24,996 nucleotides of DNA from a virus. Taxonomy: Duplodnaviria > Heunggongvirae > Uroviricota > Caudoviricetes. Positions 8,010 through 22,489 of this stretch are shown here, piece after piece. The translations under genes and the position numbers were made by a program. Location: the IMG/VR virus record IMGVR_UViG_3300045988_118627; one strand, given 5' to 3'. The first letter of the stretch is position 1. Every line of letters begins with the position of its first letter. The notes below the pieces were generated by a model. It had not been told where the DNA came from. It made no database searches and saw only the letters and a program-made list of their open reading frames with translations.

Positions 8010-8032
8010 TGCTGAAGTAGCTTTAATTTTGA

Positions 8033-8839
8033 TTATTTAGAAAGGTACTTATCTCTAAGTTGATTCAGTCTGTCAGCATCGCGTTCTGAAAACTCGGCGT
8101 CACCATAGATCGATTTCCCATCTGCGTCTTCAAGGCCAATGACTGTGACGGTAAATATAGCATCAGCCGGAACTTTAAGTTTTCCCCAATCAGAGTATCT
8201 ATTAGGGGCTAATTTCCAGTTGGCTTTCTCACCTGGTTCCAGACCTCCAGAAATTTTATAGTTGAAGACGTCAGAGAACCAAGGGACGCTTCTTCCTGGG
8301 CTGGCAATAACTCCTTTGAAGAATACTCTGGCAACCGCTTTGTCTGTTCCGTTTTCAACGCTAATATCCAGAATTGGCTGATCATTGCCGTAATCCTCTT
8401 TCTGGAAATAAAAACGGGAACGTTCGACCTTGAAGGCTTTCATTTTTTCCGCAGCCTGTGTTGCAGAGGTTTGTTTGGCTTCCAGTTCTTTTATTTCTTG
8501 CAGAGCCTGTTCTTTCTCTCTCTTCTCACGCTCAAGGCGAATAGTTTGTGCGTAATTTATAACCTCATCACCAGTTTTACCTTCCAACGCTGACTTAATT
8601 TTTGTTTCGTAGACGTCCCCAGAAGACGTTCCAGCCTGCATTAGCTCTCTCATGTTGATTTGGCTAAAGGCAACGACTTTAACTGCATCATCAAACTGAG
8701 CTTTTTTATCTGCAGGTAAGGACTCTCTTACTTTTTGAATGGACTCTTTCATCGACTGATCGCTTGATGCATCGATCTTCGGTTTGTCACAAGCAGTAAG
8801 CAGCAGAGCAAAAGCAATTACGCCAGTTAATTTCTTCAT
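8033..8839 (-). CDS. Lipoprotein with a central coiled-coil region (268 aa), unknown function
   Basis: From ATG at 8839: MKKLTGVIAFALLLTACDKPK... (lipobox LLTAC) followed by a charged helical segment (EREKREKEQALQEIKELEAKQ). The longer track ORF from 8911 is rejected as a 5' extension. Confidence 0.6.
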   Translation of the reverse strand: MKKLTGVIAFALLLTACDKPKIDASSDQSMKESIQKVRESLPADKKAQFDDAVKVVAFSQINMRELMQAGTSSGDVYETKIKSALEGKTGDEVINYAQTIRLEREKREKEQALQEIKELEAKQTSATQAAEKMKAFKVERSRFYFQKEDYGNDQPILDISVENGTDKAVARVFFKGVIASPGRSVPWFSDVFNYKISGGLEPGEKANWKLAPNRYSDWGKLKVPADAIFTVTVIGLEDADGKSIYGDAEFSERDADRLNQLRDKYLSK

Positions 8840-9361
8840 ATCCCTATCCCAATCGTAAAAAAACAAGGCTAATCCTAACAGGATTAGCGGGCATGACAAA
8901 CTCATAGCCATATAGGTGTGCTGTATAAATTAGCGGGATGAGAAAGCCTGCACAGACCCTCATGTTGAAACTTGATTTTAGCTCAAAAGAGCTGACACTA
9001 AATAACTGCGCGGAATAATGCTCCACTTTCGGTTAGCCCTTGGCCCTTGCTGGGTAAGGCGTGGGGCCGTTTTCTTCGCCTGATCCTGCTGTATCTGGCC
9101 TACAGTATGTTGTCCTTACGCGACATGCCACATGTCAGTAAACGGCAGGTGTAGCAGTATTAGACGCAGCTATTTAGTGTGTATTAAGCTGGCTCATATT
9201 TATGACTGGTTTCAAGGTTTGACCGATTTTCATGTCATGCATGTCTATGCTGCATGAGTTCGCATGATCGTTTGAGGATCGGTTTGGCTAAGACATGCCA
9301 GAACTGGCGGGCTTTTGCTCATGTCATGCAGGTGCATGAAAACTACTACATAAAGCGGGCA

Positions 9362-9380
9362 GGCGTGGCGGGGATACGAG
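9362..9380. other. Candidate cos (cohesive end) site of the P2/186 family
   Basis: GGCGTGGCGGGGATACGAG shares its first 13 nt with the 19-nt cohesive ends of 186/P2 as recalled (GGCGTGGCGGGGAAAGCAT / GGCGAGGCGGGGAAAGCAC). It lies in a 620-bp non-coding region with repeated CATG-containing motifs. Confidence 0.35.
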
Positions 9381-9532
9381 CGCGCGTTAAGCCATATAAG
9401 AGTTATATATTGATTTGATTGCTGGACATACATACAGTATCGCTCTATCATCTAATAAATCTTAGGGTATTTGACAATGTTTGGATAAAATGGAACCTAA
9501 CTTATTCATAATCCGCTAAACAGGGATGTCAG

Positions 9533-10447
9533 ATGCCATACCAATTGGTAGAGCTTAGCCCCGTAGCTAACGATCTTGAACAGTTAGGAACCAAAGAGAA
9601 GTTTTGGTTCTATTTCTCCGATGACACTGTAAATTTGCAGTTGTTTAAGTACTCTAGGCCAGGTACTGGCGAGCATTGGTCTGAAAAGTGTGCTGCTGAG
9701 TTATGTCATTTGCTTAACATTCCACATGCTAGCTATGATTTGGCGCGATACAATGGTCGATTCGGTGTGGTGACTCAGAATATCATTCCATCTGGTTTCC
9801 GGATGGTAATGGGAAATGAAGTGCTTCACAGTTCGACATTCGATTATCCTGGGCCTTTACAAGCCGGGGAAAAGCCGGTAAGGGTCAGAGAACACACTGT
9901 CACAAGGGTCTTGGGTTGTTTAGATAGGGAATCTATCAAGCCTCCTCCGAGTGTATATGATCTAACCGGGCTAAATGCAGCAGATGTATTTTGTGGATAT
10001 TTGATGCTCGATGCACTTGTGAGTAATCAAGATCGCCACCATGAAAATTGGGCAATCATGCTTAACAATGAAACTGGTGAGCAGTTTTTGTGTCCAACAT
10101 ACGATCATGCCGCTAGTTTAGGAAGGGAGATGTTAGATGATGAGCGTAACGAACGGCTTAATACTAAAGATAAAAATCGACAAATCCCATGTTTTGTAAG
10201 AAAAGCTCGCTCTGAGCTATTCAAAGCAAAAACTGATAAAAAGCCCTTGCTGACTGTTGAAGCATTTCAACATGCAGTTGAAGGGAGAGTTGCCGCTCGC
10301 GACCATTGGTTAGGTAAGTTGAGCGTTTTAACAGAAGATTCCATTACAGATGTGTTTAACCAAGTGCCTTCATCGTGTATATCCGACAGTGCACGTAGAT
10401 TTGCAACGTTAATGGTAATGGAAAATCGCAGAAGGTTACTAGAATGA
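9533..10447 (+). CDS. HipA-like Ser/Thr kinase core (HipT-like, lacking the HipA N-terminal subdomain); candidate toxin/effector
   Basis: 304-aa ORF with LGTKEKFWF (resembles the HipA GxQEK ATP-binding motif), ALVSNQDRHHENWAIML (catalytic-loop-like D-x-H-x-x-N) and CPTYDHAAS (resembles the HipA aPxYD metal-binding motif). Its stop overlaps the next gene's start (ATGA). Confidence 0.65.
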   Translation: MPYQLVELSPVANDLEQLGTKEKFWFYFSDDTVNLQLFKYSRPGTGEHWSEKCAAELCHLLNIPHASYDLARYNGRFGVVTQNIIPSGFRMVMGNEVLHSSTFDYPGPLQAGEKPVRVREHTVTRVLGCLDRESIKPPPSVYDLTGLNAADVFCGYLMLDALVSNQDRHHENWAIMLNNETGEQFLCPTYDHAASLGREMLDDERNERLNTKDKNRQIPCFVRKARSELFKAKTDKKPLLTVEAFQHAVEGRVAARDHWLGKLSVLTEDSITDVFNQVPSSCISDSARRFATLMVMENRRRLLE

Positions 10448-11184
10448 CTAATACAAACTCCGTTTACGTCGCATGGCAGGCACCAGATACCAGAGACTGG
10501 CATGTTGTTGGTAACTTGCAAGAGCGCAAATCGGGGTATGTTTTCAGGTATACCAAAGGTGCTCTTAAATCTTCTAAATTTACAAAGTTTAGCGGCATGA
10601 GTGATGTTCGTGAAACTTATGTATCGGAAGAATTGTTTCCTCTTTTTAAAAATCGCCTTTTATCACCGAGACGTCCAGAGTATCCGAGTTTCATTAAATG
10701 GCTTGGATTTGAAGAAGATAAGGTAAATCCTATCGATATTCTTGCTCGCTCGGGAGGCTTACGAAGCACTGATCAGCTGCAGATTTTCAAAAAAATTGAT
10801 TTTGATTCTGATGGTAACTTTGAGCATTTTTTCTTCTTACATGGACTTGGTTACTTGAATAGCTTAGCTAATGCTCGTGTATCTGAATTGAAACCGGGGC
10901 AAATTTTGCGTCTTTGCTTGGATCTTCAAAATGAATACGATGGGGATGCTGTTGTCGTTCGTGCAGATAAACCAGCTGAAATCGTTGGTTACTGCCCTAG
11001 GTATTTAAGTAATGACATCAAGAAGATGTTATTGGATGATCCAAAATCAATCACTTTAACGGTCGAAAAGATTAGCGATGATGCTCCTCATAACTATCGG
11101 TTATTATGTAAATTATCAGGGGTACTAAGCCAAGCCTGTCAATCGACGCTGATTCCTCAAGATGAGTTTGAACCTATTGAGTAA
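10444..11184 (+). CDS. Fusion protein: HipA N-terminal-subdomain-like (HipS-like) region plus C-terminal HIRAN-like domain
   Basis: N-terminal part ...EELFPLFKNRLLSPRRPEYPSFIKWLGFEEDKVNPIDILARSGGLRSTDQLQIF resembles the HipA N-domain (FNFFDNLLPEG...LARRLGL...LLGRDCAGAL, from memory). C-terminal part ...LRLCLDLQNEYDGDAVVVRADKPAEIVGYCPRYLSNDIKKML fits the HIRAN consensus (L.L.rEpdNpyDpnAi.V...G.lGYvPr). Confidence 0.6.
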   Translation: MTNTNSVYVAWQAPDTRDWHVVGNLQERKSGYVFRYTKGALKSSKFTKFSGMSDVRETYVSEELFPLFKNRLLSPRRPEYPSFIKWLGFEEDKVNPIDILARSGGLRSTDQLQIFKKIDFDSDGNFEHFFFLHGLGYLNSLANARVSELKPGQILRLCLDLQNEYDGDAVVVRADKPAEIVGYCPRYLSNDIKKMLLDDPKSITLTVEKISDDAPHNYRLLCKLSGVLSQACQSTLIPQDEFEPIE

Positions 11185-11190
11185 ATGAAG

Positions 11191-11214
11191 AAAAGCCACC
11201 AAACGGTGGCTTTT
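11191..11214. terminator. Bidirectional intrinsic terminator between the kinase/HIRAN operon and portal gene Q
   Basis: AAAAGCCACC-AAAC-GGTGGCTTTT: 6-bp GC-rich stem with a 4-nt loop, flanked by an A-run and a T-run, between convergent gene ends at 11184 and 11219. Confidence 0.55.
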
Positions 11215-11218
11215 CTTA

Positions 11219-19139: not shown

Positions 19140-19533
19140 AGCGGTGCCTTATGTCCGCAATAACCCGGACAAACTGCATCTGTTTGTGGATAACGGTTCG
19201 CTGGTTGCTACAGGGGCCAGCTCCATGTCATGGGAGTATCGTTACACCCTGAACGTAGTGGTTGAGGATTTCAGCGGCGACCAGAATCTGTTGATGGCCC
19301 CGGTTTTGCTGTGGCTGCGGGATAACCAGCCCGATGCCATCAATAACCCGGCGTTACGGGAAAAGTTATTCACCTTTGAGGTGGATATTCTGCGCAATGA
19401 TGTCTGTGATATCAGCCTGAACCTGCAACTGACGGAGCGTGTGCTGGTCAGCACTGACGGCAGTGTGTCGAGCGTTGAAGCGATAACGGAACCCGATGAA
19501 CCTGAAGAAATGTGGACGGTGAAACGTGGCTGA
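19102..19533 (+). CDS. R: Tail completion protein R (P2 gpR family)
   Basis: ...SLRHALNKAVPYVRNNPDKLHLFVDNGSL...YRYTLNVVVEDFSGDQNLLMAPVLLWLRDNQPD resembles P2 gpR as recalled. The start is probably GTG 19102 after AGGAG; the track start at 19081 is a TTG. Confidence 0.8.
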   Translation: MNKPQSLRHALNKAVPYVRNNPDKLHLFVDNGSLVATGASSMSWEYRYTLNVVVEDFSGDQNLLMAPVLLWLRDNQPDAINNPALREKLFTFEVDILRNDVCDISLNLQLTERVLVSTDGSVSSVEAITEPDEPEEMWTVKRG

Positions 19534-19969
19534 ATTGCAGAAAGTGGACGACTGGCTGAGTGCCTTACTGGCGAATCTGGAGCCAGCTGCAAGAAGTCGC
19601 ATGATGCGCCAACTGGCACAGGAGCTGCGCCGGACACAGCAGCAAAACATCAGGATGCAGCGCAATCCAGATGGCAGTAGTTATGAGCCGCGACGGGTAA
19701 CAGCGCGCAGTAAAAAAGGCCGCATCAAACGTCAGATGTTTGCGAAGCTGCGCACCACAAAATACCTGAAAACTGCCGCCAGCGCCGATTCTGCCAGTGT
19801 GCAGTTTGAAGATAAGGTGCAGCGCATTGCCCGTGTTCACCATTATGGACTGCGTGATCGTGTCAGTAAACGTGGGCCGATAGTTCATTATTCCAGACGA
19901 TGCTTGCTAGGTATTAATGAGCCTATTAAAAAAGAAGTTGAGAGATTTTTGATATATTGTATTTCATAA
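19526..19969 (+). CDS. S: Tail completion protein S (P2 gpS family); 3' end encoded by AT-rich island DNA
   Basis: MAELQKVDDWLSALLANLEPAARSRMMRQLAQELRRTQQQNIRMQRNPDGS...IARVHHYGLRDRV resembles P2 gpS as recalled. The last ~25 codons (...LLGINEPIKKEVERFLIYCIS) lie in AT-rich sequence. Confidence 0.78.
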   Translation: MAELQKVDDWLSALLANLEPAARSRMMRQLAQELRRTQQQNIRMQRNPDGSSYEPRRVTARSKKGRIKRQMFAKLRTTKYLKTAASADSASVQFEDKVQRIARVHHYGLRDRVSKRGPIVHYSRRCLLGINEPIKKEVERFLIYCIS

Positions 19970-19984
19970 CTTGCGTATATTGTT

Positions 19985-20011
19985 GCCCAGTGGCGATCTG
20001 GGCTTTATTTT
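19985..20011 (+). terminator. Intrinsic terminator after S
   Basis: GCCCAG-TGGCGAT-CTGGGC followed by TTTATTTT; a GC-rich hairpin inside an otherwise AT-rich island, overlapping the stop of the minus-strand KAP NTPase gene. Confidence 0.5.
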
Positions 20012-21878
20012 AATTTTCAATGCTTTGCTTTAATTTATCTATTGCGGGAGTTAAACAATCATTTATGAGCTCATCGATTTGTAATGATAATATATTTGAG
20101 TTTATTTGAGTTTTCTTTTCAATTAGCTTTCTAATTAGCTCACGGTGGAAAAAACGCTCTGCAGAAAGCTCTTTTAGATAAGGGGATTTGTTGTATCGGT
20201 TTTTTATAGCATAGCCAAAGAAATGCATCTCGGTTGAGTCTACCAGTATTTTTGTTAGTTGTTCAGCATCACCAAAATAAAGAACTGGTTTGTCGTGAAA
20301 TGAATAAATATCTTTGTTGTTGAAATTTAGATGTGCGTAATATTCATGATTTCCGGACTGTATTAATTTGAATATCTTTTGAGCGTCTTGGCTAAGTTGA
20401 TATGCAATTAACACATTTTTCTTTTGTTCTATGTAATTAACAAGCTCCTTGAATTCCCTAGTTTCTTTGCAATGAAAAGTTAATCCTCCCCATCGCTCAT
20501 CCTTAATGTCTTCATCAAAAATTTCATAACTAGTTTGTATCATTCCTTTTTCTGCTAAAATATCAACAGCAGAGTAGGCTAAGTTTGTTAAATAGTGTTC
20601 GTTGATGGGTTTTATATGTTCTCTGGATAAATGAAGTAATAATCCGTAAATATGCTTAAGAACATGCTCGTTCAATATTTCAAAATTAATAAGCGTATGA
20701 AGTGTTGAATTGTAATTTTCCTCAAATTCTGTGTATTTTAATCGATCATAATTCCAAAGTTGTGTCCATGGCTCAATTGTTTTATTAGAAACACTGACAA
20801 ATGTTATTAATTCAGATATTATTTTTTCTTGATTGATTTTCTGATTGTCAATTATATCGATCCAGGTATCCTCGTCTAAGATTAAATTTGACAAATAAGT
20901 TGTACCATATTTTTCAATTAAATTGGATGTGTATTTATTATCATCATCTATTTTATATGTTAACAAGTCAGAAACGGTTCGTTTTATTTTATTAGATTCA
21001 AAATAGAGTATAAAATGTAATTGATATAATCTGAGTGTCAAATCTGAATTTTGCTGAAACTGTGCTGGTAATATTTTGAATATTCTTTCAAAAAAAGAAA
21101 TTTGCCTTTCAATTAATCTAATGTTATTACACTCTGAAAGAGTGAGTAAGCTCTCAATATTTTTTATGTTCAGAATGGTGTTGAGTTCGCTAGTTATATT
21201 TTTTAGAAAATATTCGTAGGCGTGAGAATGTTGAGGTTGATATTTGAAAGTTATACCTATAACTTTTTCTTTTGCATCTAAATAAATACCATCATGATTT
21301 TTATTTCTAGCGGGGTTTAATATTTCTCTCTCATTGGCGATAATCAAAACCTTGCATTCTTTTTCTTCAACGAAATTATTTATATAACCAAATATAGAAT
21401 TCCAATCTAATTCGCAGCGTTCAAGATCATCAAATATCAATATGGTGTTTTCTGGTGAGTAGTAAAAGTCTTTAATACTTACGTTGGGTAGTTCTGGGGA
21501 GCCCTCTACACTTGTAACGAATGAATCACTTAAATCAATCTTAAGTGTGCCTTTAATTAGTGCCTTAGTTAGTGTGCCAGCAAGCAACATGCCTTTAGAT
21601 GAAAGGAAGGGATGCATTTGCTTGAAAATTATTTCGTCAATTTGTTCGGTGGATTTTATTCCATATAATGAGATCATTAATGGCTTAACTTCCCCTTTTA
21701 GTGATTCTTCATTCATTAATTTACGGACAAACCATGTTTTCCCGCTTCCCCATTCGCCGTCAATCATTACTGCGAAATTAGGGGATTTTTCAAGATCCAC
21801 TAAATAATTAAGATATGAGGTTAGCTCTTCATTGTAATTCATTGGATTGTAAGATCCTTCATACAATTTGAAAATCAC
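20010..21878 (-). CDS. KAP-family P-loop NTPase (candidate anti-phage/abortive-infection cargo)
   Basis: 622-aa ORF with Walker A MIDGEWGSGKTWF and Walker B ILIFDDLERC, the GxWGxGKT and hhhhDDLDR/ER motifs of KAP NTPases. It is very AT-rich, on the strand opposite the late genes. Start is GTG at 21878 or ATG at 21842. Confidence 0.8.
   Translation of the reverse strand: MIFKLYEGSYNPMNYNEELTSYLNYLVDLEKSPNFAVMIDGEWGSGKTWFVRKLMNEESLKGEVKPLMISLYGIKSTEQIDEIIFKQMHPFLSSKGMLLAGTLTKALIKGTLKIDLSDSFVTSVEGSPELPNVSIKDFYYSPENTILIFDDLERCELDWNSIFGYINNFVEEKECKVLIIANEREILNPARNKNHDGIYLDAKEKVIGITFKYQPQHSHAYEYFLKNITSELNTILNIKNIESLLTLSECNNIRLIERQISFFERIFKILPAQFQQNSDLTLRLYQLHFILYFESNKIKRTVSDLLTYKIDDDNKYTSNLIEKYGTTYLSNLILDEDTWIDIIDNQKINQEKIISELITFVSVSNKTIEPWTQLWNYDRLKYTEFEENYNSTLHTLINFEILNEHVLKHIYGLLLHLSREHIKPINEHYLTNLAYSAVDILAEKGMIQTSYEIFDEDIKDERWGGLTFHCKETREFKELVNYIEQKKNVLIAYQLSQDAQKIFKLIQSGNHEYYAHLNFNNKDIYSFHDKPVLYFGDAEQLTKILVDSTEMHFFGYAIKNRYNKSPYLKELSAERFFHRELIRKLIEKKTQINSNILSLQIDELINDCLTPAIDKLKQSIEN
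21848..21865. promoter_or_regulatory. Candidate late-promoter activator dyad TGT-N12-ACA upstream of V (pV-like)
   Basis: TGTaagatccttcatACA sits about 50 bp upstream of the V start codon, at the right edge of the AT-rich island and overlapping the 5' end of the KAP NTPase ORF. Confidence 0.35.
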
Positions 21879-21910
21879 TATTTTCTTTTGATTTCATGCA
21901 AACTGCAACC

Positions 21911-22489
21911 ATGAACGCACAACTCACAGAAATCATGCGCCTTATCACCAACCTGATCCGCACAGGTGTAGTCACCGAAGTGGACCGGGAAAACTGGCTT
22001 TGTCGGGTGAAAACGGGCGACCTTGAAACCAACTGGATTAACTGGCTGACGCTGCGCGCGGGTAATGCCCGCACATGGTGGCGACCATCGGAAGGTGAGC
22101 AGGTGGTGCTGCTGAGTCTGGGCGGCAATCTGGAAACCGCCTTTGCGCTGCCCGCTGTCTATTCGAATCAGTTCGCACCACCGTCGGCGTCGATGGACGC
22201 CTGTGTGACAGAACATCCTGACGGTGGCTGGTTTGAATACGAACCCGCTACCGGGCGCTGGTATGTCAGGGGAATCAAATCCATGGTCATTGAAGCTGCC
22301 GACAACATCACCCTGAAAACCAGTGAGTTTGTGCTGGAGGCCGACCGCACGCGTATTAACAGCGAAATGGTAATCAATGGTGGCGTTACCCAGGGCGGCG
22401 GTGCAATGAGTTCTAACGGAATTGTGGTTGATGCACATCAGCATACTGGCGTCCTGAAAGGCGGCGACACAACCGGAGGCCCGGTATGA
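21911..22489 (+). CDS. V: Baseplate assembly/spike protein V (P2 gpV family)
   Basis: From ATG 21911: MNAQLTEIMRLITNLIRTGVVTEVDRENWLCRVKTGDLETNWINWLT...SSNGIVVDAHQHTG resembles P2 gpV as recalled. The track start at 21896 is 5 codons upstream. Confidence 0.85.
   Translation: MNAQLTEIMRLITNLIRTGVVTEVDRENWLCRVKTGDLETNWINWLTLRAGNARTWWRPSEGEQVVLLSLGGNLETAFALPAVYSNQFAPPSASMDACVTEHPDGGWFEYEPATGRWYVRGIKSMVIEAADNITLKTSEFVLEADRTRINSEMVINGGVTQGGGAMSSNGIVVDAHQHTGVLKGGDTTGGPV

Follow-up and report, generated by a model that had tools for sequence, protein, structure and literature searches.

A KAP-family P-loop NTPase gene in the variable S-V slot of a P2-like prophage as a candidate anti-phage cargo

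The S-V locus and its foreign gene

The DNA analysed here, IMG/VR virus record IMGVR_UViG_3300045988_118627 (24,996 nucleotides, referred to below as the window), carries a KAP-family P-loop NTPase gene between the late genes S and V of a P2-like prophage. The gene, hereafter the KAP gene, is antisense to the late operons. RefSeq annotates its neighbours as 'phage virion morphogenesis protein' (S) and 'baseplate assembly protein V' (V), confirming the placement proposed in an earlier annotation made from the letters alone (the sequence-only reading), which had interpreted the gene as defence cargo of the prophage. The features of the locus are listed in Table 1.

The open frame of the gene spans 20010..21878 on the minus strand and encodes 622 amino acids (aa) from a GTG codon. 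The frame is as described in the sequence-only reading, whereas the start codon most likely lies 36 nt further downstream. RefSeq places it at the ATG at 21842, which yields a protein of 610 aa named 'P-loop NTPase fold protein'. The coding sequence 20010-21842 is likelier than the GTG-started frame because this ATG is where the alignment of homologues and the PADLOC profile start.

As the sequence-only reading had noted, the gene resides in an AT-rich island. The G+C content (GC) is 0.27-0.32 over 20001-21500 and 0.50-0.60 in both flanks. The value for the KAP gene is 0.307, and the G+C content at third codon positions (GC3) is 0.27 in the KAP gene and 0.61 in V. The last ~30 codons of S (~19874-19969) are also AT-rich and are part of the swapped cassette, GC3 being 0.25 in the last 32 codons and 0.57 in the earlier ones.

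Table 1 Features of the S-V locus. Coordinates refer to the window.
Feature	Coordinates	Strand	Basis
Gene S, tail completion / virion morphogenesis	19526..19969	+	Open reading frame and RefSeq annotation
Terminator-like hairpin GCCCAG-N7-CTGGGC followed by a T-run	19985..20013 (hairpin 19985-20003)	+	Located between the S stop and the KAP stop
KAP-family P-loop NTPase gene, PADLOC family PDC-S49, 610 aa	20010..21842	-	Open reading frame, Pfam, PADLOC, RefSeq, homologues
Walker A GEWGSGKT, residues 29-36 of the 610-aa protein	21735..21758	-	Sequence; invariant residues
Lys/Gly/Leu-rich insert, residues 77-122, between Walker A and Walker B	21477..21614	-	Conservation
Walker B ILIFDDLER, residues 134-142, with the DDL(D/E)R pattern usual in KAP NTPases	21417..21443	-	Sequence; invariant residues
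C-terminal all-alpha solenoid-like module, residues 236-610, presumed sensor	20013..21137	-	
Ogr/Delta-type activator dyad TGT-N12-ACA of late promoter pV	21848..21865	+	Position; match to P2
Gene V, baseplate spike; opens the V late operon	21911..22489	+	Open reading frame and RefSeq; homology resumes at the ATG

A variable slot between two late operons

The sequence-only reading had pointed to an accessory gene, orf30, at the S-V position of P2. The P2 record indeed features Orf30 at this place, on the minus strand and annotated as nonessential. The order in P2 is O-operon terminator, Orf30, pV activator site and V, which is the order found here. The hairpin downstream of S is the sole terminator-like site in 19800-22100 and likely marks the end of the O late operon; the P2 record reports a 'putative rho-independent terminator for O operon' at the matching place. 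Rfam detects no RNA family within the window.

At the other end of the slot, 5 bp separate the dyad from the KAP start codon, and the centre of the dyad is 54.5 bp upstream of the V ATG. The P2 pV activator-binding site is centred 55.5 bp before V, the first base of V being the annotated transcription start. Because the TGT-N12-ACA pattern alone is expected to occur by chance approximately six times per window, it is the location of the pV dyad that makes the case. Its start falls at -63 to -66 relative to the V ATG throughout the 18 cassette types examined, the empty one included, and the sequence around it is unrelated between cassette types (90 nt upstream of V, loci L016-L095). The V mRNA is probably leaderless, as annotated in P2, because the dyad-to-ATG distance equals the annotated dyad-to-transcription-start distance of P2.

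Homology to an empty-slot relative ends in the 3' part of S (~19870-19919) and resumes exactly at the ATG of V (21911). Every cassette type features its own version of the last ~25 gpS residues as well as its own dyad, and the exchangeable unit therefore extends from the S tail to the start of V and always includes the pV promoter. A search for direct or inverted repeats at the flanks of the island was negative, and transposon- or integron-like boundaries were rejected on this ground. The lack of flanking repeats points to homologous recombination, and cassettes look as if they were exchanged in this way within S and at the start of V.

The sequence-only reading had predicted that cargo at this position would vary among related P2-like prophages. 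Eighty IMG/VR loci encoding V proteins at least 96% identical were fetched, 77 of which hold both S and V. The slot is empty in 46 of the 77, S and V being separated by a spacer of 68-74 bp, and is occupied by AT-rich cargo (GC 0.31-0.36) in the other 31. Occupants fall into approximately 16 size and sequence classes, and the KAP gene is found in a single locus. The S-V slot is a real variable hotspot, in line with the prediction. The minus strand carries the cargo in 16 of the 17 types. PADLOC recognises among the cargos PARIS (AriA+AriB), PDC-S15, an AbiU-like protein, PDC-S59, an OLD/AriAB-like ATPase-Toprim protein and a SIR2 protein (ThsA/LmuA-like).

Seven further cargo types have no PADLOC match, and several of these are small membrane proteins. 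PADLOC-negative slot cargos, 146-481 aa in length, are present in loci L017, L027, L032, L037, L038, L041, L055, L069, L091 and L003 (2485-3015), and are candidates for new defence or exclusion functions. In locus L056, the S homologue is located downstream of V on the opposite strand, suggesting a rearrangement or inversion in the contig.

The same slot is occupied by a two-gene ATPase cargo in the isolated phage vB_EcoM-813R9 and by a 176-aa open reading frame in phage Cartapus, and is empty in a phage-plasmid from pig E. coli. Among 5426 complete E. coli genomes, V is present in 1047 and the KAP gene in 10. In all inspected KAP-carrying genomes, the gene resides in the S-V slot.

Family, architecture and distribution of the KAP protein

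The two motifs on which the sequence-only reading had based its family assignment, Walker A and Walker B, are both present, with key residues that do not vary among 82 homologues. Profile searches bear the assignment out. Pfam KAP_NTPase (PF07693) matches residues 19-240 of the protein along positions 5-253 of the 293-position profile, with a score of 60.7 bits against a cut-off of 20 (E 1.8e-16), and no other Pfam family is above threshold. PADLOC, also proposed as a check, identifies the protein over its full length as PDC-S49, a single-gene 'phage defence candidate' (PDC). The hidden Markov model PDLC05029 aligns with residues 14-618 of the 622-aa frame along positions 3-617 of 619 (E 6.5e-135), and the other two PDC-S49 models, PDLC05031 (E 7.9e-133) and PDLC05030 (E 2.6e-74), also match end to end. 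By these profile matches, the KAP protein is a member of the catalogued candidate family PDC-S49, with which it shares the size of ~620 aa, a KAP domain followed by a helical C-terminus and the single-gene format; no structural difference from the family was found. The PDC set comprises 145 candidates, drawn from genes embedded in BREX, DISARM or type I restriction-modification (RM) loci (10.1101/2024.01.29.577857).

The PADLOC Avs and bNACHT models do not match the protein, nor does any NCBIfam model, and PHROGs returns only phrog_4740, a family of unknown function. The label 'STAND-like' (signal transduction ATPases with numerous domains), used in the sequence-only reading, applies loosely: the Pfam NACHT score is below threshold (14.7 bits against a cut-off of 26.7) and involves the Walker A region alone, and the nearest folds appear to be ORC/Cdc6/TnsC rather than NOD-like receptors (NLRs).

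A search of 5.8 billion proteins produced 522 matches, and nearly all of those listed are 600-700 aa long and feature KAP_NTPase as the sole strong domain. The 90% cluster to which the protein belongs contains 279 member sequences. In the alignment of the 82 homologues, conservation extends along the whole length. Invariant residues occur in Walker A (G29, W31, G32, G34, K35), in Walker B (F137, D138, D139, E141, R142) and in the C-terminal half (W359, P519, R549, Y550). The C-terminal 375 residues, searched alone with phmmer against 1.84 billion representatives, retrieve 365 proteins. In practically all complete matches, this module is located at ~235-610 of a 600-650-aa protein. Since the position is near-constant, the family, a small one, has a fixed two-module architecture. 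Identity in distant homologues is 45-56% for the N-terminal domain and 20-27% for the C-terminus. Between close alleles (99.2-99.8% nucleotide identity), the recurrent differences are Y423H and K552N/S553T/P554H; the latter sites directly follow the invariant R549-Y550, and the counts are too few for a selection test.

The structure predicted by AlphaFold2 from the 82-sequence alignment has a mean predicted local distance difference test (pLDDT) score of 85, which rises to 92.5 in the C-terminus and falls below 50 only at residues 86-122. The predicted N-terminal core is a P-loop fold whose nearest fold neighbours appear to be ORC/Cdc6, TnsC and MuB, and the predicted C-terminal 375 aa form an all-alpha solenoid. 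The insert between the Walker motifs ranks with the best-conserved segments of the family (H77, P78, S82, K83, K93, K97, K101, D103) and occupies the position at which many KAPs hold transmembrane helices. Here, the highest 19-residue Kyte-Doolittle mean in the protein is 0.98, which is indicative of no transmembrane segment, and the hydrophobic moment of the insert, 0.15-0.32, shows that it is not amphipathic. Transmembrane helices in or beside the P-loop domain, typical of many prokaryotic KAPs, are thus absent. This does not exclude membership of the KAP group because PifA also lacks them (PMC13001434).

Members of the family are found in several genetic contexts. Alleles 61% (P0002) and 33% (P0009) identical occupy the same antisense S-V position in other P2-like phages. 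Three samples of a P2 remnant at ybjL (L005-L007, 8001-9857) contain a 60% identical allele (P0003) in intact form. Extensive deletion has removed the capsid, lysis and most tail genes from this remnant, and its S and V are degraded. At the end of this remnant, a gene encoding a GIY-YIG protein adjoins ogr. A V. cholerae homologue (30% identity) has DUF645/DUF3709 cassettes as neighbours and lies between two copies of a 160-nt repeat (L011, 1558-1717 and 3575-3734), which occurs six times in 6.2 kb. This arrangement fits a single-gene cassette of the chromosomal integron (superintegron). Integron cassettes are described as reservoirs of defence functions (PMC12614218).

Pseudomonas homologues reside in an island that also contains serine recombinases and HigB-type toxins, and other homologues adjoin MazEF or ParE modules. 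A few full-length members are carried by plasmids, and homologues are also found in cyanobacterial chromosomes. No conserved partner gene was found across the P2 slot, the Vibrio cassette, the Pseudomonas islands, Sideroxyarcus and Trichormus. The lack of a partner and the one-gene integron cassette agree with the description of the gene as single-gene cargo in the sequence-only reading.

Probable anti-phage function and its alternatives

Protection against phages has been reported for KAP NTPases that carry a C-terminal region of unknown function (PMC13552941). In EF_KAP, protection needs both Walker B and the C-terminal region and is reported not to be abortive (PMC13552941), and protection of E. 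coli is also known for Reve, a KAP system that consists of one gene and comes from P4 hotspots (PMC13586616). Like the KAP protein, EF_KAP and Reve are single proteins in which an N-terminal KAP domain precedes a 300-400-aa C-terminal region without known domains. EF_KAP, likened to the KAP protein by description, differs in having transmembrane helices, one of which is inside the NTPase domain. Reve shares with the KAP gene a location in a P2/P4-associated hotspot. It is also likened by description, and probably belongs to a different subfamily because it is described as unrecognised by PADLOC.

PifA, described as the founding KAP member, excludes T7 with membrane lesions and is an abortive-infection protein triggered by phage proteins (PMC13001434). 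The F-plasmid PifA matches Pfam KAP_NTPase (E 3.2e-43) and, like the KAP protein, is a single protein without transmembrane helices encoded by a mobile element. In contrast to the 610-aa KAP protein, PifA has 741 aa and an unrelated C-terminus, and no feature supporting a PifA-like membrane lesion was found in the KAP protein. Tmn and QatA belong with the KAP protein to the KAP/KAP-like group of NTPases. Tmn detects the phage protein T2 RIIB via solenoid-like arms, and its response consists of ATP turnover and Mg2+ export (PMC13001434). It assembles into a membrane decamer and has a pair of transmembrane helices within the P-loop domain, whereas the KAP protein has no transmembrane segment. 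QatA works with three partner genes, whereas the KAP gene is solitary.

The P2 Orf30 locus provides a parallel in placement, as it is identically located and holds variable, AT-rich, horizontally acquired cargo. Its product, the 261-aa Orf30 protein, is not related to the KAP protein and matches no Pfam family. A defence hotspot within the P2 tail genes has been noted (PMC13586616). The two classical, experimentally studied hotspots of P2-like phages are A-Q (tin/old) and Z/fun, whereas that of the KAP gene is S-V. The A-Q (tin/old-type) hotspot of the same prophage, at ~8026-11216 (L001 8017-11207), holds a second accessory island, identified by PADLOC as the candidate PDC-M11. PDC-M11A is split into two same-frame open reading frames, one of 156 aa that covers positions 11-160 of the 357-position profile and one of 193 aa that covers positions 166-357, suggesting that the gene is truly divided or contains a stop codon in frame. 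PDC-M11B belongs to the ASCH proteins. The two are followed by a minus-strand gene for a 181-aa ATP-binding protein, a second ASCH gene and a gene encoding a 263-aa protein that is weakly AbiC/AbiP-like.

We conclude that the KAP gene is probably an anti-phage or anti-mobile genetic element cargo of the S-V (orf30-type) slot, with a probability of approximately 0.75-0.8. The computational tests proposed with the sequence-only reading all came out in favour of this interpretation, and the P2 S-V context adds independent support to the PDC-S49 prediction. In the model we favour, the slot is the boundary between the O late operon, closed by the terminator, and the Ogr-dependent V late operon, driven by pV. 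A foreign gene inserted here in the antisense direction would leave the virion genes undisturbed, and would be expressed in the lysogen while the late operons are silent. The antisense placement and the promoter region common with pV suggest expression in the lysogen and possible silencing by transcriptional interference in the late phase of the prophage itself.

The product would be a soluble, one-protein anti-phage sensor-switch of 610 aa. First, the fast-evolving C-terminal solenoid would recognise a phage-made trigger, probably a protein. Recognition would then license NTP binding or hydrolysis and oligomerisation of the conserved ORC/Cdc6/TnsC-like core. Finally, the NTPase module with its Lys-rich insert would deliver the output in the absence of a separate enzymatic effector, and the infection would be stopped. 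The output is tentatively assigned to the NTPase module and the insert because the protein contains no effector domain. Given a defence function, we lean towards this sensor-switch logic. Candidate outputs are NTP consumption, ATP-dependent engagement of DNA or another cell component, and a PifA-type membrane effect; each specific output, be it ATP drain, DNA binding or membrane lesion, is in itself unlikely.

Several observations weigh against a defence role or temper it. Family-level support for defence is contextual or structural throughout: PDCs are predictions by guilt-by-embedding, the subset tested in the original study being the HEC set and not the PDCs (10.1101/2024.01.29.577857), and in the literature searched the name 'PDC-S49' gives no match and no experiment on the family was found. 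The PADLOC models for Tmn, PifA and Qat do not match the protein at E values up to 1. Alignment of the family profile with F PifA by hhalign is limited to 44 columns around Walker A (probability 82%). No enzyme-like fold or recognisable effector domain is present in the predicted structure, which makes the output step a guess. The notion that the insert is a transmembrane or amphipathic membrane-seeking helix, as in a PifA/Tmn-like mechanism, was rejected on the basis of its hydropathy and moment.

The remaining points on this side concern expression and distribution. No promoter of the KAP gene stands out above chance, as 10 sigma-70-like matches were counted and 10.6 are expected in shuffled sequences. 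The sole such match that could serve the gene (21874..21846, 9/12) would start transcription at about the ATG. A tblastn search of 50,697 deposited phage genomes revealed no full-length family member. Moreover, about half of the other slot cargos have no defence annotation, and the slot is not proven to be defence-only.

Among the alternatives, the one that survives best, although improbable, is that the gene is a weapon directed at competing P2-like phages or P4-type satellites, with a promoter responsive to, or shut off by, the late transactivators. The Ogr-type dyad is found 5 bp away from the start of the gene, which shares the entire 68-bp divergent region with pV. Anti-satellite and anti-phage systems, PARIS among them, are known from P2 hotspots (PMC9122126), and relatives carry PARIS in the slot considered here. 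However, homologues found in integron cassettes, plasmids and cyanobacterial chromosomes without known P2 or P4 argue for a general sensor, and the coupling to Ogr/Delta is purely conjectural.

Marginally less plausible is a role other than defence, whereby the gene would be a moron or a selfish gene involved in lysogenic conversion (host physiology, signalling, stabilisation or addiction) or would be simply tolerated cargo. The seven cargo types without a PADLOC match are compatible with this view, as are the diversity of KAP NTPase functions across life and the frequent proximity of distant homologues to toxin-antitoxin modules, which also stabilise elements. In contrast, the full-length match is to a family first found embedded in BREX/DISARM/RM loci, the gene is allelic with recognised defence genes in the slot, KAP fusions with the same layout are validated as anti-phage (PMC13552941), and the gene is kept intact in a decayed prophage.

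A decaying, non-functional remnant of a foreign gene is very improbable. Close alleles do exhibit more non-synonymous than synonymous codon differences (e.g., 8 vs 6), the counts being tiny, but the frame is intact in 10 of 10 E. coli genomes and in the IMG/VR copy, and the 279-member cluster, the invariant Walker motifs and the high AlphaFold2 confidence speak against decay. A conserved component of P2-like morphogenesis or late regulation, suggested by the position between tail genes only, is practically refuted, since the slot is empty in 46 of 77 relatives, the gene is present in 10 E. coli genomes compared with 1047 for V, and it is AT-rich and antisense at a place where P2 Orf30 is annotated as nonessential; the gene is not needed for virion morphogenesis.

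Two more speculative readings, independent of each other, are both doubtful. By analogy with initiator-clade AAA+ proteins (ORC/Cdc6, TnsC, MuB), the KAP family may consist of effector-less soluble NTPases that act like these initiators. The Lys-rich insert sits where the initiator-specific motif of ORC/Cdc6, TnsC and MuB-type ATPases is inserted. After sensing by the solenoid, the protein may polymerise on nucleic acid in an ATP-dependent manner via this insert, blocking phage replication or packaging. The other reading concerns S-V cassettes in general, in which activation of pV by Ogr/Delta, together with convergent read-through from the O operon, may switch the defence gene off in the late phase. 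If true, such an off-switch would explain the near-universal antisense orientation of S-V cargos.

The KAP gene is a solid but unsurprising find, as its protein class already includes defence proteins and its lineage is famous for defence hotspots. It provides a concrete and easily testable E. coli representative of PDC-S49, a family that is catalogued but unvalidated, and isogenic P2-like prophages in which the slot is empty or holds PARIS constitute natural built-in controls. The S-V (orf30) slot emerges as a third well-behaved defence hotspot of P2-like phages, useful for mining further cargos. A soluble KAP NTPase without an effector domain would help define the output of this newly validated class of defence NTPases.

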